A stretch of DNA of 64,000 nucleotides from assembly GCA_045591115.1 (NCBI GenBank), contig JAZNSH010000034.1, positions 20,779 to 84,778 of the forward strand, written 5' to 3'. The translations under genes and the position numbers were made by a program. The notes below the pieces were generated by a model. It ran no database searches and was not told where the DNA came from. It saw only the letters and a program-made list of their open reading frames with translations. Source of the stretch: Clostridia bacterium. Lineage in GTDB: Bacteria; Bacillota; Clostridia; Christensenellales; QALW01. Shown piece by piece: positions 31,369-47,314 of this stretch (position 1 is its first letter; each line of letters opens with the position of its first letter).

Positions 31369-32352
31369 TTATGCTTGGGATTGTTTTTTATAATTCAAAA
31401 AATAGCAAATAATATAATTTATCAATCCTGACATAAAAACGATTATTATGTCCATAGGAGCAAGGATAATTCCGGGAATACTTTGAAAAATAAATCCTGC
31501 ACCTAAACTGTATAGATGCCCGTTCAGCAAAAACATTTCCCCTATATACATTAGAAGCGTCATTATAGAAGCAACTATGGATGGAATCCATATTGAAAAA
31601 AGTTTTTGCTTTTCTAAGAGAAAAGATCCGGTAAAGACTCCAACCGTTACACCTAAAAGAACAAAGAATATTGTCATCAATGTGGCCGATAATGCAGATA
31701 CGCTAAGGCTTCCATCTCTCCCAAAAGCCGTAAAGCAAGCGAGTATGCAAAGGCAAAGGAATGTAAAGGAACAAACTGACTGAATAATAAGAGACTTAAG
31801 ACGTTTGTTTTCACCGTTATTTATCATTTGCCCAAAACCATACAAACAGTTCAGGATCGTAATTATTAATACAACGGAAATAATGTAAAAATGCATCTTG
31901 AATGCAGGATTATAGTCGCCCATTAAGATATCAACTGCAGTTTGTGTTTTGTATGTAGTTACAGTTTCTCCCCAACCTTCCGGAGGGATGTAACACATAT
32001 ACATCTGCCAGTCCTCAAGCTTTGTGAATGTTTCGGCCGTTGACACCACAACTTTTTCCTCAAAAAACAATTCTAATCCAAAGAAAATGCTTGTTGAAGA
32101 AATTGCTCCGCCGACAAATGCGAATCGCTTAAATAATTTGATAAACAAAGGCATTAAGAGAACAACGATAATGATAGCAACACTGATTGGTGTGTACGGA
32201 ATAATGTATTTAGGATAATTCTCTTTCATTACACTTCCGTCAACAAACATATCTGTAATAACACGAACTCCCATTGATAACGGATAATACGATGCTATCA
32301 AAACACCGAGACAAGAAAACAAATAAAATCGATTAAACTGTTTATTTTTCAT
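31369..32352 (-). CDS. Polytopic membrane protein of unknown function, third gene of the BlaI/BlaR-like operon
   Basis: The product is about 327 aa with roughly 8 hydrophobic segments. The ATG at 32352 lies 7 nt after AAGGAG and 13 nt after the blaR-like stop. Confidence 0.6.
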   Translation of the reverse strand: MKNKQFNRFYLFSCLGVLIASYYPLSMGVRVITDMFVDGSVMKENYPKYIIPYTPISVAIIIVVLLMPLFIKLFKRFAFVGGAISSTSIFFGLELFFEEKVVVSTAETFTKLEDWQMYMCYIPPEGWGETVTTYKTQTAVDILMGDYNPAFKMHFYIISVVLIITILNCLYGFGQMINNGENKRLKSLIIQSVCSFTFLCLCILACFTAFGRDGSLSVSALSATLMTIFFVLLGVTVGVFTGSFLLEKQKLFSIWIPSIVASIMTLLMYIGEMFLLNGHLYSLGAGFIFQSIPGIILAPMDIIIVFMSGLINYIICYFLNYKKQSQA

Positions 32353-32365
32353 ATTTAATCTCCTT

Positions 32366-33280
32366 TCATCCTGCATTTGTTAATAATGCATAGAAAATCG
32401 TTCCAATCAACACAATAAATACAGTAAGTGAAAACCAAGTCAACTTTTTAAAAGACAATATGTTCTCAATTCGTGTTTGCATTTTTGCGCCGCCAAAAGC
32501 AGATGCATATACCGTTACTTTTTGCTTGCTTTCTAACAATGACGATGCATAATCTTTTGTACGGTTAGATCCAATTTTTATAAGAACACGCTCATCACAA
32601 GAGAGTTCGAGATCCTCGAGAAAACATTTTAAGAATAGCCAGCAAAGAGGATTAAACCAATGTACTGCAACAATTACAAAAGCTATAATTCGCCACAAGT
32701 TATCAAAATTACGGATATGTATTTTTTCGTGCAGTACAATTAATTCAACATCTCTGTCTTTATAAGATGATGGCAGAATAATTTTAGGTTTTATAATACC
32801 GTATACAGCAGGAGATAAAATTTTCTCTGATAGATAAATGTTATTTTTTAGATGGGTTGAATCTTTGATTTCATAAATTGATGTAAAATATGCAACAACC
32901 AATATTAAAAGAATGGCCAATAATACAATAAACCATATAACCGAAGCTACACTAAAAATGTTTTCAAGTAAATCGACTTTATATGTTATCGGGAAGTAAG
33001 TATTTGCTGCCATAATACTATTCGTCATTGAAAAAGCTATATCATCAGTAGGCTGGTATACAATAATAGTTTTTGTAGTAAGTTTTGATAATAATGACAT
33101 CAGTCCATAAGGACTGTTGAGTCCAAAGGGAAATGTCATTCTAAGAAAGGGAATTATCCATAAAAACACGGTTATTCTTCTCGGAATTTTTTTTATAAGT
33201 CTGAAGAGCATGATAATAACGCTGGTTATGGTGGCAATTATGCTCATATTAAATATCCAATAAAACACTTCTTGTAACAT
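32366..33280 (-). CDS. M56-family (BlaR1/MecR1-type) membrane metalloprotease lacking the C-terminal penicillin-binding sensor domain
   Basis: 304 aa, multi-TM, with an HEXXH motif (LHEKIHIRNFD). The protein ends after one more TM helix, with no transpeptidase-like domain. Confidence 0.8.
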   Translation of the reverse strand: MLQEVFYWIFNMSIIATITSVIIMLFRLIKKIPRRITVFLWIIPFLRMTFPFGLNSPYGLMSLLSKLTTKTIIVYQPTDDIAFSMTNSIMAANTYFPITYKVDLLENIFSVASVIWFIVLLAILLILVVAYFTSIYEIKDSTHLKNNIYLSEKILSPAVYGIIKPKIILPSSYKDRDVELIVLHEKIHIRNFDNLWRIIAFVIVAVHWFNPLCWLFLKCFLEDLELSCDERVLIKIGSNRTKDYASSLLESKQKVTVYASAFGGAKMQTRIENILSFKKLTWFSLTVFIVLIGTIFYALLTNAG

Positions 33281-33285
33281 AAGCG

Positions 33286-33642
33286 TTACCTATTATCAAT
33301 GAGCTTGCGCAGTTCATTGATTTCTTCTTCAGATAACGGTTCATCTTCAATCAGTGCTGAAAACAGAGCCTTGCGAGAACCACCGAACACCTTTTTGATA
33401 AGTGAAGCAGCTTCTACCTTTTGCATTTCGTTTTGAGATACAAGCGGAGTGCAAATGAATCCTGGATCTTTACGCTGAATAAATCCTTTTGTTTCAAGCT
33501 TTTTAATTATTGTGTAAGTGGTATTTTTATTCCATCCAATAGTATCTGTGGCAATTAAGCTAATATCCTTGGCGGAAATGGGGCTTTTCTCCCATATAAT
33601 TTCCATCACTTTCGCTTCACTGTCAAAAAGTTTTTCTTTCAT
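33286..33642 (-). CDS. BlaI/MecI/CopY family transcriptional repressor
   Basis: 118 aa. A winged helix (EAKVMEIIWEKSPISAKDI...WNKNTTYTIIKKLETKGFI) is followed by a C-terminal dimerisation helix. Confidence 0.88.
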   Translation of the reverse strand: MKEKLFDSEAKVMEIIWEKSPISAKDISLIATDTIGWNKNTTYTIIKKLETKGFIQRKDPGFICTPLVSQNEMQKVEAASLIKKVFGGSRKALFSALIEDEPLSEEEINELRKLIDNR

Positions 33643-33805: not shown

Positions 33806-35122
33806 TTATTTGAACAAAATTCCGTTTATAATGCTTTGTAAATATTCTTGTTTACCGCTTGATGGGAGATTTGGTGCGCCCATTTCTTCGGCAATTTTTA
33901 CAAGTTCTGAAAGGCTTACGTTGCCATCAACGATTCTTTTGCCAATACCCTTTTCGAAGCTTGAGTATCTTTCCTTAACAAAGTTGTCAATTCTACCATC
34001 CTTAATAATTTCTGATGCTTTAATAAGACCGAGTGCAAACGTATCCATTCCAAGGATAAATGCATGGAACATATCTTCATATGTATAGCTGGCTCTTCTT
34101 GTTTTTGAATCAAAATTAAATCCGCCCGTAAGACCGCCGGCTTTAAGCACTTCATACATACACATTGTTGCATCATATACATTGGCAGGAAATTCATCGG
34201 TATCCCAGCCGAGCAATAAATCACCTTGGTTAGCATCTATTGAACCTAACATACCGTTCATTGCAGATACTCTGAGCTCGTGCTGGAATGTATGACCTGC
34301 AAGAGTTGCGTGGTTTGCTTCAATGTTAATCTTAAAGTCTTTATCAAGACCATATTGACGCAAAAATCCTATTGCAGTTGCCGCATCAAAATCATATTGA
34401 TGTTTCATAGGCTCCTTGGGCTTGGGTTCAATGTAGAAATCACCTTTAAATCCAATAGAACGACCATATTCAACAGCCATTTTCATAAGTCTTGCAATGT
34501 TTTCTTGTTCGAATTTCATATCTGTATTTAAAAGAGTTTCATATCCTTCTCTTCCGCCCCAAAAAACATAACCTTTTCCATCGAGCTTTACTGTAAGATC
34601 CAACGCTTTTTTCACTTGTGCAGCTGCAAAACAAAAAACGTCAGCTGAGTTTGTTGAGCCTGCACCGTTCATAAAACGAGGATTTGAGAACATATTTGCA
34701 GTACCCCATAAACATTTAATTTCGGTTTCATTCATTTTTTCAAGAATATAATCAGTTATTTCATCTAATCTGCGGTTTGTTTCTTTAATATCGTCTGCTT
34801 CAGGAACAAGATCAACATCGTGAAAGCAAAAATATTCCACACCAAGTTTTTGCATAAATTCAAAGCCGGCATCGACTTTTGCCTTTGCGTGTTCCAATGT
34901 GCCTTTTTCAGCGCCGAATGATTTATCACCGGTATCTCGGCCAAACATATCTGTTCCTGCGGCACAAAGATTGTGCCACCAAGCCATTGCAAATGGTAAA
35001 TGCTCTCGCATTGTTTTTCCCATTATAACACGATCGGCATCATAAAATTTAAAGGAAAATGGATTTGTGCTATCCTTTCCTTCATATTGAATTTTTGGAA
35101 TGTTTTTAAAAATTTCTGTCAT
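33806..35122 (-). CDS. xylA: Xylose isomerase
   Basis: 438 aa: [27 protein letters not shown]..., FCFHD, EPKPKEP, WDTDEFP. Confidence 0.95.
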
Positions 35123-35133
35123 AATCTTTTACC

Positions 35134-36612
35134 TCATTTTATTTTTTTGTATAACTCTTTTACCGCAGAATAAATTTCTTTAAACTTTTTATATCGTTCT
35201 TCATATCTTGCTACAATATCTTTTTGTGGTGAAATAATTTTTTTTATCTCAAAAAGTTTTTTTGCGCACTCATCAATATTTTTTAATTCACCGCTACCGA
35301 CCATAGCAAGTATTGCCGCGCCATATCCCGGTCCTTGTTCTGTTTTGGGAATAGCAATATTCACATTTAAAACATTACATAAAATTGTTTGCCAAAGTTG
35401 TGAGCGTGCGCCACCACCGCAAAGAGTACTGAGGGAAATATTGATGCCTTGTTCTTTTGCAATCTCAACATTATCACGAATAGCAAAAGCGACTCCCTCC
35501 AACACTGCTTGCACCATATCTTTGCGCAAGGTATTCATTCTAAGACCGATAAACATCCCTCGTGCATCGGTATCATTGATTGGACTACGCTCTCCCATTA
35601 GATAAGGCAAAAAATATACGTCGTTGTTACCTAATGATCTTTCTGTTATTTCATTTTGCTCTTCAACGTAATTATCGTTTTTTAAAATTTCTTCACAGAA
35701 CCATTTATTGCAAGATGCTGCTGAAAGTATACACGCCATAAGATGATATTTTCCTGAAGCGTGACAAAAAGAATGTAATGCATTTTGCTTATCAACAGTA
35801 AATTTATCAGACGAAATAAAAACAGTTCCCGATGTGCCTAAAGAGATATTACACTTACCGTTTTTAACTGTTCCGGTGCCAATAGCTGCGGCAGCATTAT
35901 CCCCTGCACCTGCCACTACTTTAACCTTTTCTGATAATCCTAATGCTAAAGAAATTTCAGGAAGAAGTGTTCCTACATTTTCATAGCTTTCAAATAAGGT
36001 AGGCATTTGCTTTTTTGAAAGTGAACAAATTTTTAACATTTCTTCAGACCAACATTTGTTTTTTACATCAAGCAAAAGCATACCTGATGCATCAGAATAA
36101 TCAGTGCAGTGAACACCTGTTAACCTATAATTGATATAGTCCTTCGGAAGCATAACTTTTGAGATTTTTTTGAAATTTTCAGGTTCATTACTTTTAACCC
36201 AAAGAATTTTAGGTGCAGTAAAGCCTGCAAATGCTATATTAGCAGTTAGCTCAGAAAGTTTTTCTTTACCGATAACGCTATTCAAATAGGATGTTTCCTT
36301 ATCAGTTCTTCCATCATTCCAAAGTATAGCGGGACGAATTATGTTATCGTTTTCATCAAGAATAACTAGACCGTGCATTTGTCCGCCTACGCCAATTCCT
36401 GCTATTTCAGAAGAATCAATATCACAAAGAAGATCTTTTGTACCCAAACAAAATGCATTCCACCAATCATCCGGATTTTGCTCACTCCAACCGGGATGAG
36501 GATAAAAAACATCATACTCTTTTGTGACAGTTTTAATAATTTTTCCATCAGTATCAACAAGCAAAAGCTTTAACGCTGATGTTCCCAGATCGGCACCTAT
36601 ATAATATTTCAC
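35134..36612 (-). CDS. xylB: Xylulokinase (FGGY family)
   Basis: 492 aa: YYIGADLGTSALK, GVGGQMHG, the FGGY C-terminal domain GGGARS. GTG start after GGAGGT. Confidence 0.9.
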   Translation of the reverse strand: MKYYIGADLGTSALKLLLVDTDGKIIKTVTKEYDVFYPHPGWSEQNPDDWWNAFCLGTKDLLCDIDSSEIAGIGVGGQMHGLVILDENDNIIRPAILWNDGRTDKETSYLNSVIGKEKLSELTANIAFAGFTAPKILWVKSNEPENFKKISKVMLPKDYINYRLTGVHCTDYSDASGMLLLDVKNKCWSEEMLKICSLSKKQMPTLFESYENVGTLLPEISLALGLSEKVKVVAGAGDNAAAAIGTGTVKNGKCNISLGTSGTVFISSDKFTVDKQNALHSFCHASGKYHLMACILSAASCNKWFCEEILKNDNYVEEQNEITERSLGNNDVYFLPYLMGERSPINDTDARGMFIGLRMNTLRKDMVQAVLEGVAFAIRDNVEIAKEQGINISLSTLCGGGARSQLWQTILCNVLNVNIAIPKTEQGPGYGAAILAMVGSGELKNIDECAKKLFEIKKIISPQKDIVARYEERYKKFKEIYSAVKELYKKIK

Positions 36613-36694: not shown

Positions 36695-36706
36695 AATTTG
36701 ACTTTT
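36695..36706 (+). repeat. Direct 12-mer AATTTGACTTTT, copy 2
   Basis: An exact copy 42 nt downstream of copy 1, ending 9 nt before the AraC ATG. Confidence 0.6.
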
Positions 36707-36715
36707 GGAGGAAAT

Positions 36716-37486
36716 ATGTTTTATCAATATAACCATTTAGGTTCACCTGATTATTTGAGGATAGAGAAAAATGAAAATTTTTGCTTTCCCCCACACTTGC
36801 ATCAATGCTTTGAAATAATAGTTATTCTTTCTGGTCAAATGAAAATAACTGTTGACGGAAAAACATATATTTTAAATAAAAATGAAGCGCTAATTATTTT
36901 TCCTAATCAAATACACGAGCTTGAATCAACGGAAAGTAAGCATATTTTGTGCATTTTTTCACCAAGAATTGTTCAAGCTTATATTTCTAAACTTTCAGAT
37001 AAAATTCCCAATAATAATAAATTTATTCCTGATGGATATTTAGTGGATGCTCTTGAAAAGCTTAATTCTTCATCTTCTTCAGTTGAAAAAAAAGGCGTAT
37101 TGTATTCGTTATGCGGGCAATTTGATAATCAAACTGAATACATTGAAAAAAAGACGGATAGTGAAAAGCTTTTACACAAAATCTTTTCCTTCGTAGAAGA
37201 TAATTTTAACGGAGATTGCTCGTTAAACAACCTTGCTAAAAAAACCGGCTATGATTATTCATATCTTTCTCGTCATTTTAAAAGTATAGTTGGAATTTCG
37301 TATAATTCTTATGTAACCCACTATCGTCTAAGCTATGCGTGCTATCTTATTGAAAATGCTGAACAGAACATTCTGCAATGTGCATATAACAGTGGTTTTT
37401 CATCACTTAGAAACTTTAATCGTTGTTTTAAAGAATATTTAAAGATTACACCAACACAATATTTTGAAAAAATAAAATCGGAGTGA
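36716..37486 (+). CDS. AraC family transcriptional regulator (cupin plus HTH), divergent from xylBA
   Basis: Cupin-like N-terminus (PPHLHQCFEIIVILSGQMKITVDG) and an AraC HTH C-terminus (GYDYSYLSRHFKSIVG...GFSSLRNFNRCFKEY). The ATG at 36716 follows GGAGG. Confidence 0.85.
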   Translation: MFYQYNHLGSPDYLRIEKNENFCFPPHLHQCFEIIVILSGQMKITVDGKTYILNKNEALIIFPNQIHELESTESKHILCIFSPRIVQAYISKLSDKIPNNNKFIPDGYLVDALEKLNSSSSSVEKKGVLYSLCGQFDNQTEYIEKKTDSEKLLHKIFSFVEDNFNGDCSLNNLAKKTGYDYSYLSRHFKSIVGISYNSYVTHYRLSYACYLIENAEQNILQCAYNSGFSSLRNFNRCFKEYLKITPTQYFEKIKSE

Positions 37487-37502
37487 GTGCACTCCGATTT
37501 TT
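37475..37502. terminator. Bidirectional rho-independent terminator
   Basis: AAATCGGAGTG agtg CACTCCGATTT, between convergent genes. Confidence 0.8.
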
Positions 37503-37506
37503 AAAC

Positions 37507-38172
37507 TTATAATCCCATAACCGAATCGATTGGAAGCGAAACAACAATGCCTTTTGCATCACTTTTAATACCGTATTTTTCGCTTATTGCTGACATAATT
37601 TTTACCTTAACATCTTTTTTTGCAAGAATCAAAATCATTTCACGCTCTTCTTGCACGCTTAAGCCCCAGAAGCCAATAGCCTCTTCATTTTCTATTGCTC
37701 TTGCGTGAATGATCGTTCCGCCACCTGCACCTGCTTCACGGGCACAATTCATAATTTCTGAACTATATCCTCGGTCAACGATTGTTGCAATTAAAGAATA
37801 TTTATTTTCCATTAAATTTTCACTCATTTCTATATTTTCGATGTTTTCGTTGATTTTGTTCATCATATTGAATACTAATTTGCTTGCTCCTGTTAGAGGA
37901 ATGGTAAAAGCTATACCACTATTGACCATTTCAAGGCGAAGCTCATTATGGAGAATTGAAAGCATTTCATTGCCGAAAGCTCGTGGAACGGTGCTTATCA
38001 AAACGCCCTTATCAATACTTCCTAAACCCAAGGTATCCATTATTTCACTGGAGGCCGTACCTTCGGCAGATAATCTGTACTGCAAAGGAAGATTGTTTTT
38101 TAAAAACATTTCTGCAGCGGCATCAACGAGCTTAGGTCTTGCAATAAGCACGATCAGTTGATAATCTGACAT
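37507..38172 (-). CDS. Tandem P-II-like signal-transduction protein (two P-II-like halves fused)
   Basis: 221 aa. Both halves start with a beta-strand motif (YQLIVLIARPKLVD and YSLIATIVDRGYSS). The second half carries AGAGGGTIIHARA, typical of P-II-like proteins encoded beside DUF1538 genes. Confidence 0.6.
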   Translation of the reverse strand: MSDYQLIVLIARPKLVDAAAEMFLKNNLPLQYRLSAEGTASSEIMDTLGLGSIDKGVLISTVPRAFGNEMLSILHNELRLEMVNSGIAFTIPLTGASKLVFNMMNKINENIENIEMSENLMENKYSLIATIVDRGYSSEIMNCAREAGAGGGTIIHARAIENEEAIGFWGLSVQEEREMILILAKKDVKVKIMSAISEKYGIKSDAKGIVVSLPIDSVMGL

Positions 38173-38177
38173 TGTAT

Positions 38178-39722
38178 TTAAACCTCCTCAAAATCAATAA
38201 TTTCATCACAATCGTCAGTAAGTCCTGTATGAACAACTGCAGGCTTAACGATTTTATTACTTTTAATTTTATAAACAATACCCATCGTTTGGATTGCGAT
38301 TAGCGGCGTAAGAGCAACTAATGCAACAACACCAAATGCATTTGACATAATATCTCCGCCCAATGCACTGCAAACACCTATGCTAAGTGGCAAAAGGAAT
38401 GTTGAAGTCATCGGTCCGCTTGCAACTCCACCTGAGTCAAATGCAATACCGACAAATATTTTAGGAACAAAAAATGACATTGCAAGTGCAAGTACGTATC
38501 CTGGAATGATTATCCAATAAATATGAAATCCTATAAGAATCCTCAACATCGCAAGTCCAATACTAACTGCAACACCAATTGACATACTTCTATTCATTGC
38601 TTTAACCGAAATAGCGCCATCGGTAACATTTTCAACCTGATGATTTAAAACCTGAATAGCCGGCTCTGCTTTAACGATAAAGTAACCGATAAGCATACCC
38701 AACGGAATTACGATCCAATTATATGATAAGCTTGCAAGAGAAGTTCCTAACTGAGCACCAACAGGTGCGAAGCCAACATTTACGCCGCAAAGAAAAAGAA
38801 CAAGACCGATAAAAGTGTATACTAAACCAAATGATATCCTTAAAATCTGTCTTTTCTGATATCTGTGAGTAAATACCTGAAACAAAAAGAAAACAATGAG
38901 AATCGGCAATAGCGAAACTGAAACCTCGGCAGCAAATAAAGGTAATTTTGTGCCGAAAACATATACAACATCTCGTGTTGTTATAACTGCTTCAACGTGA
39001 GCTAAGGAATATTCTGCCTCAGTTGGTTTAAAGAAGCAACCGAGAATGAGCACTGCTAAAATAGGTCCGATACTTGATAATGCAACCAAGCCAAAGCTAT
39101 CGCTCGCTGAGTTTTTATCACTTCTTACAGATGCAAGACCAATACCCATTGCCATAATAAACGGAACTGTCATAGGACCTGTGGTAACGCCGCCGGAGTC
39201 AAATGCAACTGCAATAAATTCTTTTGGAACAAAAAATGATAAAATAATTAAAATTAAATAAAAAATGATAAGTAGCTTTGATAGGCTGAAGCTGTATTTA
39301 ATTCTGAGAATTGCAATAGCAAGAAATAATCCTACGCCTATTGCAACAGTTAATATCAACACCAGGTTAGGAATTGTTGGAACCTGCTCCGCCAAAACCT
39401 GAAGATCAGGCTCGGAAATAGTTATAATGACACCCATTATAAAACCAATCAGCAGAACAAGAAGCTCTTTTTTTGTTTTTGAAATTTGCACACCAATGCC
39501 CTCGCCTATCGGTGTCATAGAAAGCTCAGCACCAAGCTGAAAAAAGCCCATACCGAAAATAAGCAAAACGGCACCAACAAAAAACATAACCATTGTGTTA
39601 AGCTCAATTGGCACAAAAAAAACACTAATAAAAAGCATTATGCCTGTTATCGGTAAAACGGCAGATAATGATTCTAAAGTTTTTTCTTTTAACTTAGGAT
39701 TCAAAAGAAACAACCCTTTCAA
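38178..39722 (-). CDS. DUF1538-family integral membrane protein with an internal duplication; putative transporter
   Basis: 514 aa and highly hydrophobic. Each half carries a copy of the motif AFDSGGVTTGPMTVPF / AFDSGGVASGPMTSTF. Probable TTG start 6 nt after the upstream stop. Confidence 0.65.
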   Translation of the reverse strand: MKGLFLLNPKLKEKTLESLSAVLPITGIMLFISVFFVPIELNTMVMFFVGAVLLIFGMGFFQLGAELSMTPIGEGIGVQISKTKKELLVLLIGFIMGVIITISEPDLQVLAEQVPTIPNLVLILTVAIGVGLFLAIAILRIKYSFSLSKLLIIFYLILIILSFFVPKEFIAVAFDSGGVTTGPMTVPFIMAMGIGLASVRSDKNSASDSFGLVALSSIGPILAVLILGCFFKPTEAEYSLAHVEAVITTRDVVYVFGTKLPLFAAEVSVSLLPILIVFFLFQVFTHRYQKRQILRISFGLVYTFIGLVLFLCGVNVGFAPVGAQLGTSLASLSYNWIVIPLGMLIGYFIVKAEPAIQVLNHQVENVTDGAISVKAMNRSMSIGVAVSIGLAMLRILIGFHIYWIIIPGYVLALAMSFFVPKIFVGIAFDSGGVASGPMTSTFLLPLSIGVCSALGGDIMSNAFGVVALVALTPLIAIQTMGIVYKIKSNKIVKPAVVHTGLTDDCDEIIDFEEV

Positions 39723-39728
39723 AAAATA

Positions 39729-40928
39729 TTATAAAAAGTTTGAAGTAATGAAGTAAACTCCGTATATATTTAATGCAACGGAAAGCAGACAAATTTCAGC
39801 ACGAATAACCTCAAATGTTGGGGTGAATTTTTGTGTTGAAAGATACATTGCAAGAAAAGGTATCATATCAATAAAATATCTTGCACCAAATTGCGCTCCG
39901 CCAAGTGTTTTGTGCATACACGTTGCAAGAATAAAAATTATAACTGCAACAAGGAAAAGATAATCTTCTGTTTTTCGTTTTATGATACAGTTTTTAAAAT
40001 TATAATAGAAAAAAACTGCAATTATCGGATTAAATATGTAAAAAATATTTGCTGAAAATTTGTTTACGTTTAAAGAAAATTCCGGAGAATAATTAAAAGG
40101 TAGTTTTATTGATTGAATCAAATTATCCCAAAGATATGACAGACTAAACTGACCATCTTCTGACCTTGTAAATTCAGGCAAATAATTGTGGCCAAACTCA
40201 AATGGATTATCGAATCTGACGTAATTATATATCATCAACAAAAGGGCAACGACAGCAGGTGCAATTATATATGGCCAAAGCTGATAAATTTTTTTATCAG
40301 TGTTATTTTTATAAAGCTTCATCAATAAGAAAGGAATAAAAATAACGGTAAAAGGTCTGCATCCAACTGCCAGAGCCGCTAAGAAAAGAGATAAGCCGTT
40401 AAGCCATTTTTTATTGCTGAAAATGAATAATGCAGCAAGTGAACATAGCATAAATGAAAGGCATTGAGCTTCATGCCATACTCCGCCAAAGGTTGCAATG
40501 GAAAGCAAATTAGTACCTAAAGTCGCTGTCAACGCCATTATCACTGAAGTCAGTAATGAAAATTTTTTATAAAAAAGCAAAGTTATTGCAACGCAGGAAA
40601 CAACGATATAAATAAAAAGCATAAATTGATTGGGTGTTTCCTGACCAAAGAAAATCGTTAAAAAAAACTCAACAACGGAAGGAACAGGAGGAAAGCTAAC
40701 AAAATATTTTCCTTCATAAATTGCAAGCTCAAGATATTCAATTTCTCTGGGATCGTTGTCAAGATAGGTTTTTCCATCCTGCCAGGCAAGAGCCTGCCTT
40801 GTGTAGCTATCGTAGGGATTATGCTCGAAAATTTTTATATCAAACATCAGCACGATAAGTGCAAGTATTGTTATAGAAAGAAGCGCCGCGGTGAAAGCGG
40901 CGTAGAATTTATCCTTGTATTTCGACAT
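39729..40928 (-). CDS. Polytopic membrane protein, possibly a GT-C-type (ArnT/PMT-like) glycosyltransferase
   Basis: 399 aa with about 10 TM segments and an acidic first loop (DNDPREIEYLE). The assignment rests on general architecture only. The start overlaps the galK 3' end by 20 nt. Confidence 0.35.
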   Translation of the reverse strand: MSKYKDKFYAAFTAALLSITILALIVLMFDIKIFEHNPYDSYTRQALAWQDGKTYLDNDPREIEYLELAIYEGKYFVSFPPVPSVVEFFLTIFFGQETPNQFMLFIYIVVSCVAITLLFYKKFSLLTSVIMALTATLGTNLLSIATFGGVWHEAQCLSFMLCSLAALFIFSNKKWLNGLSLFLAALAVGCRPFTVIFIPFLLMKLYKNNTDKKIYQLWPYIIAPAVVALLLMIYNYVRFDNPFEFGHNYLPEFTRSEDGQFSLSYLWDNLIQSIKLPFNYSPEFSLNVNKFSANIFYIFNPIIAVFFYYNFKNCIIKRKTEDYLFLVAVIIFILATCMHKTLGGAQFGARYFIDMIPFLAMYLSTQKFTPTFEVIRAEICLLSVALNIYGVYFITSNFL

Positions 40929-42174
40929 TTGTTGTACCTATAGGTCTTACAGAAAGCTCAACGCAAGCTTTTTCGCCAAATACGTTTTCCATTTTTTCAA
41001 TATATTCTTCTTGAAGCTTCTTAGGAACGAAAGCAAGAATTGTGCCACCGAAGCCACCGCCGTGAACGCGGCAAGCACCTTCGCCTTTAAGAAGTTTTGA
41101 TGAAACTGCAAGAGCAAGTGTCATTGCCTGATTGGTGCTTCCTGTTGCGTGGGTATTTTGTAAAAGCTTCCAGCTTGATTCACCTGAGGCGTTGATTGCA
41201 TCAAAAAACTTCTGAACGTCATTATTTTTTACAGCGTCAACAGCATCAAGAACGCGCTTGTTTTCATCAAAGAAATGAATTGCACGCATAACTGCTCTGT
41301 CACACACGTTCTTTCTTAAATCACTAAGTTTTGAATAAAATTCATTTTCATCAACTTCACGAAGAACGTTTTTACCGAAATATTTTGCAACTGCTTTCAT
41401 TTCCTCGGTAATAGAAGCATATTCCTGTGTAAGATCTGCGTGATCTGCGTGAACGTCAGTTATAATAATTGAGAAACCTTCTTTATCAAAATCAATGTCG
41501 ATTCCTTCGATAACAGGATTTTTTGGATCATTGAAATCAATAAAAACGAGCTTGCCGAGTGCACAAGCAGTTTGGTCCATAAGTCCGCAAGGCTTACCAA
41601 AGTAATTGTTTTCAGCCCATTGACTTGTTTTTGCACCTTCTACAGCATCAAGCTTCCCGTCGTTATAGAGATGGTTGAAAATTGTGTAAATAAGAACCTC
41701 GATTGCAGCTGAAGAAGAAAGACCGCTACCTGCAAAAACATCACTTTGAATATAAGCATCAAAGCCGCCAATATTCATATTAAGATCGTTTTTCATATGA
41801 TAGGCAATACCGCGGATAAGAGCTTGTGTTGTGCTTTTTTCTGATTCAATGTAATTAAGATTTGAAAGATCAACAATATTTTTGGCATCATAACCTTCAG
41901 AAATTATCTGAACAATATTATTATCAGTTTTTCTTGCAGCACAAACTGCATCTAGATTAATACCTGCTGCCATAACACAGCCGTGATTATGGTCAGTATG
42001 ATTTCCTATAATTTCACTACGCCCTGAGGTGGAAAAAAACAAAACTTCTCCCTCGCCGAATAGCTCTTCAAATCTATTTTGAATGTTTTCATAACGATCG
42101 ACCTGATTTTTTGCATCGTCACCGTAAATTCTTTTTAAAATTTGTGTGTTTTTTATATCTTTTATAAATCCCAT
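40909..42174 (-). CDS. galK: Galactokinase
   Basis: GHMP kinase: GRSEIIGNHTDHNHG (galactokinase signature) and GSGLSSSAA. Confidence 0.92.
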   Translation of the reverse strand: MGFIKDIKNTQILKRIYGDDAKNQVDRYENIQNRFEELFGEGEVLFFSTSGRSEIIGNHTDHNHGCVMAAGINLDAVCAARKTDNNIVQIISEGYDAKNIVDLSNLNYIESEKSTTQALIRGIAYHMKNDLNMNIGGFDAYIQSDVFAGSGLSSSAAIEVLIYTIFNHLYNDGKLDAVEGAKTSQWAENNYFGKPCGLMDQTACALGKLVFIDFNDPKNPVIEGIDIDFDKEGFSIIITDVHADHADLTQEYASITEEMKAVAKYFGKNVLREVDENEFYSKLSDLRKNVCDRAVMRAIHFFDENKRVLDAVDAVKNNDVQKFFDAINASGESSWKLLQNTHATGSTNQAMTLALAVSSKLLKGEGACRVHGGGFGGTILAFVPKKLQEEYIEKMENVFGEKACVELSVRPIGTTNVEIQG

Positions 42175-42311: not shown

Positions 42312-43811
42312 ATGCGTGATATTAAAGAACTTATTGAAATCTGTACTCAATTTTCACTAAAGAAGGGCTTATCTTATAAGGCTGATCTTCCCTATGTCAG
42401 AAATAGACTTATGTCGCTTTTCCACGTTGATGCACCATTTGATGGCGAAGTTTCAGTGCCTGACAGTATTATTTCCGTTCTTGAAGAAATGGTTGATTAT
42501 GCTGCTGAAAATAATATGCTTGAAATGAACACTGCGGCATATCGTGCAATGTTTGATACGAAAATCTGCGGTTGTATGCTTATGATGCAATCACAAGTGC
42601 AGGATAATTTTAAATGTCTTTCGAATCAGTCGACAGAAAAAGCTACGGATTGGTTTTATAAGCTTTGTAAGGATGTTAACTATATTCGTACCGCTGATGT
42701 TGCAAAAAACATTCTCTATGATTATGAATCATCATACGGCACGATGGAAATTACAATAAACCTTACAAAACCTGAAAAAGATCCCAAAGAAATCGAAAAG
42801 CAAAAGTCTATGCCTCAGACAAATTATCCTAAGTGTATGCTTTGCCTTGAAAACGTTGGTTATGAAGGCAGATTGGGATATCCTTCTCACGAGACGCTCA
42901 GAACCATTCCAATTACGCTTGATAACGAAGAATGGAATTTTCAGTACAGTCCCTATGTTTATTATGATGAGCACTGTATTGTTTTCTGCTCTGAGCATAC
43001 ACCTATGACAATGAACGAGAAGAAGTTTGTTCGTTTGTTTGATTTTATTAAGCAATTCCCCCACTATTTTATCGGTTCAAACACTCAGCTTCCCGTAGTT
43101 GGCGGATCAATTCTTACCCACGAGCATTTTCAGGGCGGTAGACATATTATGCCTATGGAGAAGGCTGATGATCTTTATACTTTTGATTGCAAAAATTCAA
43201 ATATCAAAGCATCGGTTGTCAACTGGCCTATGACGTGCATCCGCTTATCAAGCGAAGATTATAATGAGCTTATACCTGTTGCAAATCATATTTTAAAAAC
43301 TTGGCAGAATTATTCAGATGAAAGTCTTAATATTTTTGCATTTACTGATGGAAACGAGCATAACACTATTACTCCTATCACAAGAATAAATTCTAAAGGA
43401 CTTTACGAGTGTGATATTGTTTTGAGAAATAATCTTACAACAGATGAACTTCCTTTAGGCGTTTATCATCCTCATCCTGATAAACATAATATCAAGAAAG
43501 AAAATATCGGTCTTATTGAAGTAATGGGATTATTTATCCTTCCCGGCAGATTAAAAAATGAGCTTGATGAAATAGCAAATAAATGGCTTAATAATGAAGA
43601 TATTGACAAAGCAAGCGTTCATTATGATTGGTATAATGGCTTTAGAAACAGCTACTCACCTAAAAACTATGACGATGCAAAAGAATATATTTATAATCTT
43701 GTTGGCGGAGTTTGCGAAAACGTGCTTCGCGATGCAGGTGTATTTAAAGAAGATGAAAAGGGTCGCGACGGACTTAAGCGTTTCTTGAATGCTTGTGGTT
43801 TTGAGGTATAA
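42312..43811 (+). CDS. galT: UDP-glucose--hexose-1-phosphate uridylyltransferase (type 2 GalT)
   Basis: 499 aa, the Firmicute long-form GalT. Motifs: CMLCLENVGYEG, GGSILTHEHFQGG. Confidence 0.92.
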   Translation: MRDIKELIEICTQFSLKKGLSYKADLPYVRNRLMSLFHVDAPFDGEVSVPDSIISVLEEMVDYAAENNMLEMNTAAYRAMFDTKICGCMLMMQSQVQDNFKCLSNQSTEKATDWFYKLCKDVNYIRTADVAKNILYDYESSYGTMEITINLTKPEKDPKEIEKQKSMPQTNYPKCMLCLENVGYEGRLGYPSHETLRTIPITLDNEEWNFQYSPYVYYDEHCIVFCSEHTPMTMNEKKFVRLFDFIKQFPHYFIGSNTQLPVVGGSILTHEHFQGGRHIMPMEKADDLYTFDCKNSNIKASVVNWPMTCIRLSSEDYNELIPVANHILKTWQNYSDESLNIFAFTDGNEHNTITPITRINSKGLYECDIVLRNNLTTDELPLGVYHPHPDKHNIKKENIGLIEVMGLFILPGRLKNELDEIANKWLNNEDIDKASVHYDWYNGFRNSYSPKNYDDAKEYIYNLVGGVCENVLRDAGVFKEDEKGRDGLKRFLNACGFEV

Positions 43812-43812
43812 G

Positions 43813-44460
43813 ATGGATATTTTATTTGTAATAACAAGCTTTATTTGCGCAATTATCGTGCCGATAATTAACTATCAATCACTTGGGTTAAAAGGATTTG
43901 TATTTTCCTTTATTTTGATTGTTTTTGCACTTGTTGTACTTGCTTATGCAATACTTTCTGTATATAAGTTAAAAATATCAAAGATAAGCTATCTTGATTC
44001 TCAAAAAATAGTTTCTTGGGGAAAATATACAGAGCCTGAAAGATCAAAAAAACCATTCATTATCAGCTTAATCATTGGGCTTGCTTTTGGAATTTTAATT
44101 TATTTTAACGGTAGCGGTCTTTTTTCGGCAATACTTCTTTCATTATCCTGTGCTTTCGCTGTTTTAGGATGGTGGCTTATGGGGATAAAGAGATATCAGC
44201 ATAGACTCGGTGAAGTTGGCGTTTTTTTACTTTCTCATATGGGAGTGATTTATAACGGTAAAACTGAGGTCTTTAATGGTTATTCAAAAGGAATTACCGG
44301 TGCTAAAAGAGAAGAAAATCTTTTAGTTCTTACGATTCTTAAGAAAAAAAAGGAAAATGATTTCAGAATTGAAATTCCCGAAGAAAAAATTGAAGAAGTT
44401 GATAATTTTTTGAATGATCTTAAAAAACATTTCAGCGGAGAAAACGATGAGATCCAATAA
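43813..44460 (+). CDS. Four-TM membrane protein with a cytoplasmic C-terminal domain, unknown function
   Basis: The ATG at 43813 lies 6 nt after GAGG and 1 nt after the galT stop. It is paralogous in layout to the next gene (VFLLSHMGVIYNGKTEVFNG versus IIFSRSGIWYCGKVCYFGDNG). Confidence 0.55.
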   Translation: MDILFVITSFICAIIVPIINYQSLGLKGFVFSFILIVFALVVLAYAILSVYKLKISKISYLDSQKIVSWGKYTEPERSKKPFIISLIIGLAFGILIYFNGSGLFSAILLSLSCAFAVLGWWLMGIKRYQHRLGEVGVFLLSHMGVIYNGKTEVFNGYSKGITGAKREENLLVLTILKKKKENDFRIEIPEEKIEEVDNFLNDLKKHFSGENDEIQ

Positions 44461-45235
44461 AAAACAAAAAATGAATACGGCCTATCAGAAACATCTTGAT
44501 TTTATGAAGGCTGCTTCAATAATTTTATTAGCGATACCCATTGCTTCTATTCTTGTTGTATACTACGTTCTTGAAGAGCAGTTTGAAACCAATATGGACG
44601 TTTTATACTATATTTTTGTTGTTGCTCTTTTAGGTTTTATTGCGGGAATTGTATTAGGCGTTGTCGCTTCAATGAAACAAAACGTGGCAGACAGTATCAA
44701 TGAAAATTTATATGCTATCTGGAAGTATAAACCGGAAACAATTTATCGTTTTTACAGAAAAATGTGTAGATATGAAAAGAAAACTTCTTTCTGGAATTTC
44801 TTTTTAGCCGGCGCTTTTGTTCTTATTGTAGGAATAATTATGTTCAACAACGAAGTAGGACATTTTTTAGGAATAGTTTTTATTGTTGGAGCAATTATTT
44901 TAATACTTGCGGGAATAACTCGTCTTCCCTATTGCCAGTATCTCTTACTGAAGTTGCGCACAAAAATTATGGGCGATGCAAAGGAAATTATTTTTTCGCG
45001 AAGCGGAATATGGTATTGTGGGAAGGTTTGCTATTTCGGTGATAACGGTATAACTTACCATAGAGTTGAAAGAAAAGAACTCCACGGACAAGATGCTATA
45101 ATTTTTTATTATACTCACACAAGAGGTTTTCAACAAACCGCAAAAGAGCTTGCTATTCCGGTTTCGCCCAAAATGGCATATGCCGCTGATGATCTTGTTG
45201 CAGAATTTAACAGAAGTGATCTTTTATCAAAATAA
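44447..45235 (+). CDS. Four-TM membrane protein with a cytoplasmic C-terminal domain, unknown function; paralogue of the previous gene
   Basis: The ATG at 44447 lies 6 nt after GGAG and overlaps the upstream gene by 14 nt. Confidence 0.55.
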   Translation: MRSNKKQKMNTAYQKHLDFMKAASIILLAIPIASILVVYYVLEEQFETNMDVLYYIFVVALLGFIAGIVLGVVASMKQNVADSINENLYAIWKYKPETIYRFYRKMCRYEKKTSFWNFFLAGAFVLIVGIIMFNNEVGHFLGIVFIVGAIILILAGITRLPYCQYLLLKLRTKIMGDAKEIIFSRSGIWYCGKVCYFGDNGITYHRVERKELHGQDAIIFYYTHTRGFQQTAKELAIPVSPKMAYAADDLVAEFNRSDLLSK

Positions 45236-45359: not shown

Positions 45360-46514
45360 ATGATCGATATTACCTTTTTAGGCGAAAAAATTCGCAAAAA
45401 CAGAAAAGAATTAGGCATAACTCAAACAGAACTTGCGCAAAAGCTCAATATAAGCTTTCAAGCGGTTTCAAACTGGGAACGTGGCACAGCTCCCCCGGAT
45501 CTTGATAACATTGTGAAGCTTTCCCAATTATTTGGAATAACCATCGATAATTTGCTTAATACTTCATTAAATGAAGAAAATGTTTATTTGGGTATTGATG
45601 GCGGTGCAACGAAAACTGAATTCGTTGTATTCGCTTCATCGGGAAAAATATTCAAGAAATTTAAGCTTGAAGGTTCAAATCCCAATGATATCGGTATTGA
45701 GAAATGTGCAAATGTTTTATCACAAGGTATTGATACCTGCTTAAGTGAGTACCCTTCGTTAAATAAGATATTTGCAGGCTTATCAGGTATCGGCGCAGGA
45801 ACCAATAAGAAAGATCTTACGATGCTTCTTTCATTAAGATATAAGCATTTAAAGATTGAAATGGATACTGATGCCGCAAATGTATTTTCATCATCAGATG
45901 AAGTGTGTTCTTCTGCAATGATCTGCGGTACTGGATCAGTTGTATTTGCAAATGTTAACGGTGCAACCAAAAGACTTGGCGGATGGGGTTATTTCTTTGA
46001 CAATGCAGGAAGTGCCTTTGATATTGGAAAAGATGCGATTTCTGCCTGCCTTTCATACGAAGATGGATTAACGGAATATACTAAAATCTATCCGTTGCTC
46101 TGCAGTGCCCTTGATTCACGTGCTACGAAGGTTTGGGAATCAATAAGTATGGTCTATAAAAAAGGCAAAGCATATGTTGCAAGTATGGCGCCTGTTGTTT
46201 TTAAGGCATATTCATCAGGTGATGCTACTGCAGAAAAAATTATTGATCAGAATATGAATCGCCTTGCATTGCTTATTAATAAAGCGACAGAAATCAGTTC
46301 AAATAATAATATTATTGCTTGCGGAGGATTGTTTGAACACTTTGGCGATATGCTCTTCCCCATTTTAAAAGAAAAATGCAAAAAAGCAAACTTCATCGTT
46401 CCTGATCTTCCACCGATTTACGGTGCTTGTAAGGAATGCTTAAAAAGGTTTGATATTGTATCTTCAAATAATTTTCACGATACTTTTTATAACGAATATG
46501 TCAGAGGTGTATAA
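45360..46514 (+). CDS. XRE-type HTH domain fused to a BadF/BadG/BcrA/BcrD-type sugar kinase (MurNAc/GlcNAc kinase-like)
   Basis: N-terminal HTH (IRKNRKELGITQTELAQKLNISFQAVSNWERG), then the ATPase phosphate-1 motif LGIDGGATKTEFVVF and later GTGS / GGWG motifs. murQ follows 2 nt downstream. Confidence 0.75.
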   Translation: MIDITFLGEKIRKNRKELGITQTELAQKLNISFQAVSNWERGTAPPDLDNIVKLSQLFGITIDNLLNTSLNEENVYLGIDGGATKTEFVVFASSGKIFKKFKLEGSNPNDIGIEKCANVLSQGIDTCLSEYPSLNKIFAGLSGIGAGTNKKDLTMLLSLRYKHLKIEMDTDAANVFSSSDEVCSSAMICGTGSVVFANVNGATKRLGGWGYFFDNAGSAFDIGKDAISACLSYEDGLTEYTKIYPLLCSALDSRATKVWESISMVYKKGKAYVASMAPVVFKAYSSGDATAEKIIDQNMNRLALLINKATEISSNNNIIACGGLFEHFGDMLFPILKEKCKKANFIVPDLPPIYGACKECLKRFDIVSSNNFHDTFYNEYVRGV

Positions 46515-46516
46515 AA

Positions 46517-47314
46517 ATGCTTGATACTGAACGCAGAAATGAAAAAACTAAAAATATTGATAAAATGTCGACCCTTGAAATGGTTGATATCATTTCGGAA
46601 GAAAACTACAACGCTGTAAAGGCTGTTGAGGCTGAGCGCGAGAACATTGCTCTTGCAATTGATGCGATAAGTGAATCCTTAGCCAATGGCGGTAGATTAT
46701 TTTATATTGGAGCAGGAACATCAGGCAGACTTGGTGTTGTAGACGCATCTGAGTGTCCTCCTACATTTGGTGTTGAATACGGACTTGTTACCGGCATTAT
46801 TGCAGGTGGATATGATTGTATGTTCAAGGCTGCTGAAAATGCTGAGGATGTTTACGAAAAAGGTGAAAAAGATATTATTGATTACGGTGCTAAAAAAGGT
46901 GACGTTGTTGTCGGTGTTTCTGCTGCGGGCGGTGCTGCATATGTTGTTGGTGCTCTTGAAAAGGCAAAAGAAATTGGATGTGTTACCGTAGGCTTAACCT
47001 GCAATAAAGACACAAAGGTTCTTAAAGCGTCCGATATTAAGATCTGCACACAAACAGGTCCTGAGGTTATTACCGGTTCTACAAGAATGAAGGCAGGAAC
47101 AGCGCAGAAATTAGTTTTAAATATGCTTTCAACCTGCGCTATGGTTAAAACGGGTAAGGTTTATGAAAACCTTATGATCAATCTTAAGCCTACGAATATT
47201 AAATTGAAGGATCGTATGGTTCGTATAGTTTGTGAAATTAAAGAATGTGATTATAATACTGCCGAAAAGCTTTTAAATGATAATAATTGGGTTATTCGAG
47301 ATGCTGTAAAATAA
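46517..47314 (+). CDS. murQ: N-acetylmuramic acid 6-phosphate etherase
   Basis: SIS domain: GGRLFYIGAGTSGRLGVVDASECPPTFGV and ...GSTRMKAGTAQKLVLNMLST. Confidence 0.9.
   Translation: MLDTERRNEKTKNIDKMSTLEMVDIISEENYNAVKAVEAERENIALAIDAISESLANGGRLFYIGAGTSGRLGVVDASECPPTFGVEYGLVTGIIAGGYDCMFKAAENAEDVYEKGEKDIIDYGAKKGDVVVGVSAAGGAAYVVGALEKAKEIGCVTVGLTCNKDTKVLKASDIKICTQTGPEVITGSTRMKAGTAQKLVLNMLSTCAMVKTGKVYENLMINLKPTNIKLKDRMVRIVCEIKECDYNTAEKLLNDNNWVIRDAVK

Follow-up and report, generated by a model that had tools for sequence, protein, structure and literature searches.

Within a 64,000-nucleotide (nt) stretch of DNA from a Clostridia bacterium (assembly GCA_045591115.1, contig JAZNSH010000034.1, positions 20,779 to 84,778; hereafter the window), a galactokinase gene (galK) is followed on the minus strand by genes for a polytopic membrane protein, a DUF1538 membrane protein and a protein resembling two fused P-II signalling domains. 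The arrangement raises the question of whether the last two proteins serve galactose metabolism. An earlier note on the same DNA had proposed that they do, the DUF1538 protein being the missing importer of a Leloir operon under P-II-like control. Our analysis strongly supports the DUF1538 protein and the double P-II-like protein as a dedicated, translationally coupled pair, and we consider it probable, if well short of certain, that they form a P-II-regulated transporter module unrelated in origin to galactose.

DUF1538 and P-II-like genes are paired across genomes

In the window, the DUF1538 gene (38178..39704, minus strand) and the P-II-like gene (37507..38172, minus strand) are separated by 5 nt, and the Shine–Dalgarno sequence of the latter, GAGGAGG (38183..38189, minus strand), lies inside the 3′ end of the former, as had been noted before. 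The generality of this arrangement was examined from both sides. A scan with a tandem-P-II alignment as query, using one genome per species, yielded 109 confirmed loci of which 80 were kept, whilst a scan of metagenome contigs from the DUF1538 side yielded 586 confirmed loci of which 80 were kept (55–76 % identity); addition of seven plasmid or secondary-replicon records brought the latter set to 87. A fused DUF1538 gene was present directly upstream and on the same strand in 80/80 P-II-side loci (E 1e-129 to 1e-275; the score was lower only in genes truncated by the end of a contig). The median distance from the DUF1538 stop to the P-II ATG was 0 nt, with the genes overlapping in 38/78 pairs and spaced by −14 to +30 nt in 69/78. 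Among the 87 DUF1538-side loci, a P-II gene was found downstream in every locus with room for one. The combination of translational coupling and strict co-encoding fits a P-II-controlled membrane transporter.

The same order was evident in RefSeq records of Vescimonas fastidiosa, Peptoclostridium acidaminophilum and Paraclostridium bifermentans, in which a 'DUF1538 domain-containing protein' of ~500 amino acids (aa) precedes a 'P-II family nitrogen regulator' of 222–224 aa. Common gut Clostridia carrying the pair included Vescimonas, Subdoligranulum, Acetatifactor and Lachnospiraceae, and it was also present in Alphaproteobacteria; the pairing is therefore old and crosses phyla. In RefSeq records of the alphaproteobacteria Methylocystis rosea and Chelativorans, DUF1538 is divided between two genes (~230 and 242 aa) with one single-domain P-II gene (112–122 aa) behind them, and these single P-IIs beside split DUF1538 genes match the hidden Markov model (HMM) of the tandem family at 1e-27 to 1e-28. 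The fusion state of DUF1538 and that of its P-II partner appear to co-vary, a comparison that takes its split form from these two alphaproteobacterial genera, with the first DUF1538 gene of Chelativorans truncated. Repeating the plasmid search to obtain further split-form loci brought back the same nine records. In the searchable literature, which covers few subscription journals, we found no description of the pairing; RefSeq annotates both genes side by side.

The split genes of M. rosea pGW6_2 (L083, 4273–6064) stand alone as DUF1538–DUF1538–P-II between IS66 and IS4 on a mobilizable plasmid, and this cassette looks like a self-contained, horizontally mobile three-gene unit.

The DUF1538 protein is a fused relative of a cation antiporter

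The 508 aa DUF1538 protein matched Pfam PF07556 in two stretches (E=6.6e-142; 470 bits against a cutoff of 22.6), bearing out its assignment to this family. NCBIfam models placed both known units in the one chain, with UmpB (2.7e-41) aligning to residues 17–225 of the N-terminal repeat and UmpA (8.2e-53) to residues 270–483 of the C-terminal repeat. In Halomonas zhaodongensis, two DUF1538 proteins form the membrane heterodimer UmpAB, which acts as a Na+(Li+,K+)/H+ antiporter in Escherichia coli KNabc (PMC5484666), such that the earlier description of DUF1538 as uncharacterized is out of date. DUF1538 also figures in a list of cation/proton-transport features predictive of growth pH (PMC13255231).

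The internal repeat seen earlier, with one motif in each half, was evident in the sequence and in the model. The AlphaFold2 (AF2) model (predicted local distance difference test score, pLDDT, 78.7; predicted template modelling score, pTM, 0.77) comprises two all-helical repeats at approximately residues 1–225 and 243–491. The signatures of repeat 1, FDSGGVTTGPMT (39168..39203, minus strand), and repeat 2, FDSGGVASGPMT (38406..38441, minus strand), are located at predicted helix breaks, the helix in each case breaking exactly at the GPM of FDSGGVxxGPMT. Each repeat additionally carries an (S/A)EP motif. Residues E98, P99, D169 and R134 vary neither between the repeats nor between the two phyla, and the signature Asp and Gly are invariant in fused and split forms from the two phyla. 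Membrane-embedded acidic residues at helix breaks, the activity of UmpAB and the growth-pH listing are consistent with ion-coupled transport of small cations or solutes, without proving the cargo.

Foldseek searches with the model identified no solved relative, the best match having E=0.0096, a template modelling (TM) score of 0.17 and a root-mean-square deviation (rmsd) of 19.6 Å, and a direct sequence search of the PDB found nothing. Matches to CLC and MATE folds were Foldseek noise (TM ≤0.2, rmsd >19 Å), and a fold like that of SbtA, AmtB, NhaA, the MFS or sugar porters had no support from the same comparison. The family is large, with more than 8,000 candidates, all at E≤0.001, the best 120 of which were 75–88 % identical.

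The partner protein contains two P-II domains

The 221 aa product of the downstream gene is a tandem P-II protein, an assignment based on the Pfam scores of its orthologues, profile alignment of its halves, its AF2 model and Foldseek. The window protein itself fell below the Pfam P-II threshold (PF00543; 17 bits against a cutoff of 25, C half only), whereas DUF1538 partners elsewhere exceeded it, at 32–66 bits for double-length and 33–38 bits for single-domain proteins; an HMM check thus upholds the P-II assignment for the orthologues and not for the window protein directly. HHalign comparison of N-half and C-half profiles built from 136 diverse representatives aligned them end to end over 96 columns with a probability of 98.3 % (E=1.1e-14), in keeping with the two halves that had been recognized earlier; a shallow alignment of 38 sequences gave no signal. 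The AF2 model, of moderate confidence (pLDDT 64), displayed two β-α-β-loop-β-α-β halves, namely an N domain at ~1–100 and a C domain at ~122–221, joined by a disordered linker at ~95–121. Single domains of this model matched GlnK, GlnB, SbtB and PotN best (TM 0.55–0.71), whilst sequence searches of the PDB with the protein and its family profile found nothing.

The most conserved stretch of the protein is the T-loop-equivalent segment of the N domain, AEGTASSEIMDTLGLGSIDK (38008..38067, minus strand), a low-pLDDT loop in the model. Within its pattern GTASSEI(M/L)DxLGxGxxDK, positions G38, T39, A40, S41, I44, D46, L48, G49, G51, D54 and K55 are invariant, and at least 80 % of representatives sharing no more than 50 % identity with one another retain GTA, GL and K. 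The equivalent segment of the C domain is RAIENEEAIGFWGLSVQE (37648..37701, minus strand). Relative to a GlnB reference, the T-loop equivalents are ~6 residues shorter than in canonical P-II proteins, and the GDGK B-loop (TGxxGDGKIF) is absent, the corresponding stretches reading SDAKGIVVSLP (C half) and VNSGIAFTIPL (N half). A tandem chain of this kind cannot form a simple trimer of three domains. Clustering at 50 % identity divided the family into 3,191 clusters at E≤1e-3, 1,758 at E≤1e-10 and 482 at E≤1e-30.

Two further features of the family were observed. In Peptoclostridium (L082, 6475–7143), both halves retain G-x-GGT...RG and Pfam P-II matches two stretches; by comparison, the N half has diverged to LQYRLSAEGTASSE in the family of the window protein; evolution of the two domains is asymmetric. 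Members P0040, P0041 and P0105 are named 'transposase' in NCBI/nr, an evident annotation error that has probably been propagated between records of metagenome-assembled genomes.

A dedicated transporter–regulator module as the probable reading

On the reading that we favour, the locus would comprise two modules, the first consisting of galT divergent from galK and the membrane protein, which resembles GT-C glycosyltransferases, and the second of a fused UmpB–UmpA-type DUF1538 secondary transporter with a dedicated cytoplasmic regulator of two P-II domains, encoded by translationally coupled genes. The DUF1538 and P-II-like proteins would be made together in a fixed proportion, as the coupling of their genes indicates. 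By analogy with GlnK–AmtB and SbtB–SbtA, the P-II-like protein would dock on the cytoplasmic face of the transporter through its conserved T-loop-equivalent segments and either open or plug it, in a manner presumably dependent on a small-molecule effector. The cargo would most likely be a monovalent cation moved in exchange for protons, the activity known from UmpAB, or else some other small ion or solute, and probably not galactose. In the clade of the window, the pair may be read through from the galK promoter. Within this reading, monovalent cation/proton antiport as the activity is a tentative assignment, one that we would expect to prove wrong rather more often than right. A further elaboration is possible but improbable: one P-II domain would serve each DUF1538 repeat, and as the transporter halves fused, so would the P-II domains, yielding a single-chain, pseudo-dimeric P-II that plugs a pseudo-symmetric transporter without a solved relative.

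Comparison with known systems indicates where these analogies hold. UmpAB (PMC5484666) shares the Pfam family PF07556 with the window protein, the N repeat of which resembles UmpB and the C repeat UmpA; in both cases two homologous halves are needed together, and the family as a whole conserves the acidic and Gly/Pro motifs. It differs in that the window halves are fused in one 508 aa chain scoring far below the equivalog cutoffs, and in that a P-II partner is unmentioned in the published work, UmpAB having worked in E. coli without one. As in GlnK–AmtB, a P-II-type gene is dedicated to, and predicted in the window to be co-transcribed with, a transporter gene, and the T-loop equivalent is the likely contact. 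In contrast to that system, the DUF1538 transporter fold is unrelated, the window P-II is a tandem fusion with T-loops ~6 residues shorter and no GDGK B-loop, the gene order is transporter then P-II, and the neighbour census revealed no nitrogen-metabolism context. SbtB, a P-II-like protein reported to control the cyanobacterial Na+/bicarbonate transporter SbtA (PMC8352866, PMC9974498), is closer in gene order, in the cation-coupled secondary transport of SbtA and in its structures being among the best fold matches of the window protein. Nevertheless, the DUF1538 model has no structural similarity to SbtA, the window protein lacks an R-loop and is tandem rather than single-domain, and its hosts live as heterotrophic anaerobes in the gut. 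P-II-like proteins of other kinds in Firmicutes, such as PotN and PstA/DarA, likewise have a divergent P-II fold and a link to transport or second messengers, PotN being a fold match, yet they are single-domain trimers with other partners (an ABC polyamine transporter; c-di-AMP), and searches of the PDB by sequence and profile with the window protein detected no sequence-level relation.

Several observations weigh against the favoured reading. The four-gene order is conserved throughout the clade of the window (window, L002, L006 and L007) over 66–85 % identity, and a scan of the minus-strand row found no terminator between the galK/membrane-protein genes and the DUF1538/P-II pair, such that co-expression of the pair with galK, and some local functional link, is possible. 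One metatranscriptome contained only short, low-depth fragments from relatives, and the DNA runs bear out no more than an origin in gut metagenomes. Physical interaction between P-II and DUF1538, a ligand and a substrate are all proposed by analogy. The domain arrangement in the 221 aa model is unreliable (pTM 0.48), and nucleotide sensing cannot be assumed because the canonical ATP-binding GDGK B-loop is not kept. The DUF1538 protein scored 179 and 142 bits against the UmpA and UmpB equivalogs (NF041627 / NF041628), far under the cutoffs of 490 / 500; it qualifies for family membership and not as an UmpA/UmpB equivalog, and the UmpAB substrate may not transfer to it. Finally, the activity of UmpAB itself rests on one heterologous complementation study, in which the protein was functional without a P-II partner (PMC5484666).

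It is conceivable, though unlikely, that signalling runs in reverse, with DUF1538 chiefly a sensor or anchor in the membrane by which the tandem P-II is sequestered, the real targets of the latter being cytoplasmic enzymes or regulators. P-II proteins typically have several targets; sequestration of GlnK by AmtB controls DraG, and the targets of SbtB extend beyond SbtA. Such a role would be in line with the faster evolution of the P-II (60–85 % identity) than of the transporter (75–88 %), and with AraC-type regulators as the sole recurrent neighbours of the pair. Set against this, the strict 1:1 gene coupling and matched fusion state fit a stoichiometric complex better than a diffusible regulator, and the nearest-neighbour census found no conserved third partner gene.

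The galactose genes form an independent module

The link to galactose was evaluated in loci with at least 2.7 kb of sequence upstream of the pair, counting galK, galT or the gene for the 399 aa membrane protein. Such genes were present in three of 63 genome loci from the P-II-side scan and in none of 61 metagenome and plasmid loci from the DUF1538-side scan, i.e. 3/124 combined, and all three belong to closer relatives of the window. The order galT–galK–membrane protein–DUF1538–P-II, with galT divergent, was repeated in L002, L006 and L007 only (P-II 66–80 % identical); the contig of the closest relative, L001 (85 %), was too short to show the upstream genes. By this neighbourhood count, which had been set beforehand as the check on the link, there is no general association between the pair and gal genes. 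More broadly, when the two nearest open reading frames (ORFs) on each side of the pair were counted, the 141 upstream neighbours represented 121 Pfam families and the 137 downstream neighbours 138, with galactokinase occurring three times. Recurrence was confined to AraC-type regulators (16/141 upstream, 6/137 downstream).

Conversely, homologues of the 399 aa membrane protein with divergent galT and overlapping galK but no DUF1538/P-II pair were identified in L086 (63 %), L091 (54 %) and L088/L089 (53 %), and galT divergence was conserved in L002, L006, L007, L086, L088 and L091. In L088, SpoVT immediately follows the membrane-protein gene, whereas in L007 the pair is located between the membrane-protein gene and an orthologous SpoVT (72 % identity). 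This comparison is the better evidence for an insertion/deletion polymorphism of the pair; the convergent AraC gene of L091 was rejected as a marker of the ancestral insertion site, its product being only 23 % identical to the AraC regulator of the window. Because gal linkage is limited to 3/124 loci and the gal module persists without the pair, the two modules are best described as juxtaposed in one small clade. The galT/galK–membrane-protein block and the DUF1538/P-II pair are independent modules that have come to lie side by side solely in a small group of uncultured Clostridia of the ruminant gut, and the placement of the pair at the 3′ end of the galK row is a recent juxtaposition.

An AraC gene was also observed immediately upstream of the pair and on the same strand in about a dozen species (L009, L012, L023, L030, L033, L043, L048, L049, L052 and L078), suggesting that AraC regulators may control the pair; in the window and in L006 the AraC gene is instead convergent and downstream.

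The upstream module begins with galK (40909..42174, minus strand), encoding a 421 aa galactokinase-family GHMP kinase that matched Pfam GalKase_gal_bdg (58 bits) and GHMP_kinases_N. NCBIfam galactokinase models matched it at up to E=6e-56, yet under every equivalog cutoff, and its nearest solved structures are all galactokinases. On the plus strand (42312..43811), galT encodes a type 2 UDP-glucose--hexose-1-phosphate uridylyltransferase (NF003629, 656 bits against a cutoff of 628) and is divergent from galK, as previously stated. The 399 aa polytopic membrane protein (39729..40928, minus strand; overlapping the galK stop by 20 nt) has ~9 predicted transmembrane segments and was earlier called GT-C-like, a label based on weak matches. 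The window protein itself has no Pfam match, and its NCBIfam match to the LA_3751/LA_3752 putative glycosyltransferase (E=8.8e-11) reached 41 bits against a cutoff of 200. Its family matched GT-C clan Pfams only, and weakly (PMT_2, DUF2079, GT87, PIG-U, TMEM260-like), with three of 36 members matching PMT_2 (best 6e-4) and one matching DUF2079 (1.3e-5). A PDB search with the family profile found nothing. In GT-C enzymes, a catalytic acidic residue is expected in the loop outside the cytoplasm that follows the first transmembrane segment; conserved positions of the family, all after the first transmembrane segment, are D40 (≥90 %) and the invariant S41, W49 and E67.

In the window, L086, L088, L089 and L091, galK overlaps by 4–20 nt the gene of a 395–411 aa GT-C-like membrane protein (53–77 % identity), with galT divergent. 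This conserved pairing of galK with a putative glycosyltransferase hints that galactose goes into an envelope glycoconjugate and not into catabolism alone.

It is decidedly unlikely, on balance, that the pair has been recruited locally, supplying ion or pH homeostasis, or moving a precursor, for galactose-dependent envelope glycosylation by the GT-C-like protein with UDP-galactose derived from galK/galT. The conserved four-gene order, the lack of a terminator between the modules and the translational coupling of galK to the GT-C-like protein over a wider range would suit such a role, and GT-C enzymes such as Listeria GtlB and Bacillus YfhO use polyprenyl-phosphate sugars to glycosylate teichoic acids. 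Against this, membership of the GT-C clan is itself weak, a polyprenyl-phosphate glycosyltransferase was not seen next to the membrane-protein gene, and more distant homologues of the membrane protein (39–44 % identity) were found without gal genes. A promoter-like site, TTTACT-18 nt-TATAAT (39728..39757, minus strand; 10/12 matches), also precedes DUF1538 at the end of the membrane-protein gene. It may be the pair's own promoter, although in this AT-rich region such sites occur near chance frequency (38 found against 29 expected) and it is a lead only.

The proposal of the earlier note, in which DUF1538 provides the galactose uptake otherwise lacking from a Leloir operon and is gated by its P-II-like partner, now appears highly improbable. 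In its favour, the four genes run in one direction with hardly any space between them and one terminator at the end, their order is conserved in L002, L006 and L007, and a partial census of the window agrees with the earlier statement that no galE and no galactose importer is recognizable there. Opposed to it are the linkage to gal genes in just 3/124 loci and the existence of the gal module without the pair. The pair is moreover 75–88 % conserved across widely differing surroundings, an argument for a single function that does not depend on context, whilst the characterized family member UmpAB moves cations (PMC5484666) and the DUF1538 fold is unlike any solved sugar porter. Scarcely credible, lastly, is the notion that the 221 aa protein falls outside the P-II type, being instead an ACT-like or BMC-like tandem of ferredoxin-like, ligand-binding units that fulfils some other role. 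Tandem ACT regulatory subunits and BMC-T proteins do appear among the Foldseek matches with comparable E-values, and the window protein is below the Pfam P-II threshold, but those tandem matches have rmsd 9–13 Å and TM 0.26–0.40 against TM 0.55–0.71 for single P-II domains, orthologues reach up to 66 bits with Pfam P-II, and the single-domain partners of split DUF1538 match both Pfam P-II and the tandem-family HMM at 1e-27.

Junctions, signals and neighbouring genes in the window

All four ORFs of the minus-strand row were present in the ORF list of the window where they had been reported, co-oriented and tightly packed. Two of the three junctions described earlier stood, namely the 20 nt overlap and the 5 nt gap; the third, a gap of 6 nt before DUF1538, is 24 nt. 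Because a 100 %-identical database protein is 508 aa long, we place the DUF1538 start at TTG 39704, behind GAAAGGG, and not at 39722, the start of the longest ORF; the 6 nt gap had resulted from use of the most upstream TTG. The single bidirectional terminator was likewise recovered, as an intrinsic terminator at 37474..37501 with a 12-bp stem, an A-run before and a T-run after, which closes both the minus-strand row and the convergent AraC-family regulator gene (36698..37486, plus strand) facing the P-II-like gene. The window is low in G+C (~35 %), and its closest relatives are metagenome-assembled Clostridia (Oscillospiraceae, Acutalibacteraceae and 'Eubacteriales') from ruminant and other animal guts.

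An orthologue of this AraC regulator (76 % identity) is found at the same place in L006. Beyond it in the window are xylA (438 aa; typical of xylose isomerases in sequence, yet unmatched in Pfam at E≤0.01) and the FGGY kinase gene xylB, at 33806–36612 on the minus strand, and the AraC gene may belong to these xylose genes rather than to the pair. Further along the same strand (31369–33642) are a 118 aa gene of BlaI-like size, a BlaR1/M56 peptidase-family membrane protein (304 aa) and a 335 aa protein with six transmembrane segments and no Pfam match.

On the other side of the row, galT is directly followed on the plus strand by two overlapping genes (43789–44460 and 44414–45235) for proteins of 223 and 273 aa with approximately four transmembrane segments and no Pfam match. 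Their position is kept in distant relatives (~217 and 265 aa; L086 2692–4111, L088 2647–4084 and L091 1549–2989), marking them as an unannotated conserved part of the galT operon. Next is a fusion of HTH_3 and a BadF/BadG-type (N-acetylglucosamine-kinase-like) ATPase followed by a SIS/GKRP-type (MurQ-like) protein (45360–47314, plus strand; L088 521–2496), and two ABC exporter genes (47438–51065) come after the latter. These genes suggest that the locus handles amino-sugar or cell-wall sugars in addition to galactose.

Implications for P-II signalling and the DUF1538 family

Three lessons for annotation follow from this locus. Tight spacing with galK does not make the DUF1538 gene a galactose transporter, the name 'P-II family nitrogen regulator' misleads here, and the 'transposase' label on some members is an error. 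Few signal transducers are as widespread as the P-II proteins and, to our knowledge, only a handful of their partnerships with transporters are understood, these being AmtB, SbtA and possibly PotABCD. The DUF1538/P-II pair is abundant, with more than 8,000 DUF1538 candidates, 1,758 tandem-P-II clusters (E≤1e-10) and strict adjacency in every locus examined, whilst the searchable literature holds the antiporter activity of one split DUF1538 pair and nothing on the P-II partner. Knowledge of the effector and cargo of the pair would add a new P-II–transporter paradigm and assign a role to a family whose fold is unknown. If a pseudo-dimeric P-II does act on a pseudo-symmetric transporter, the pair would represent a widespread, undescribed class unlike GlnK–AmtB or SbtB–SbtA, one that breaks the rule that P-II works as a trimer on a trimer.

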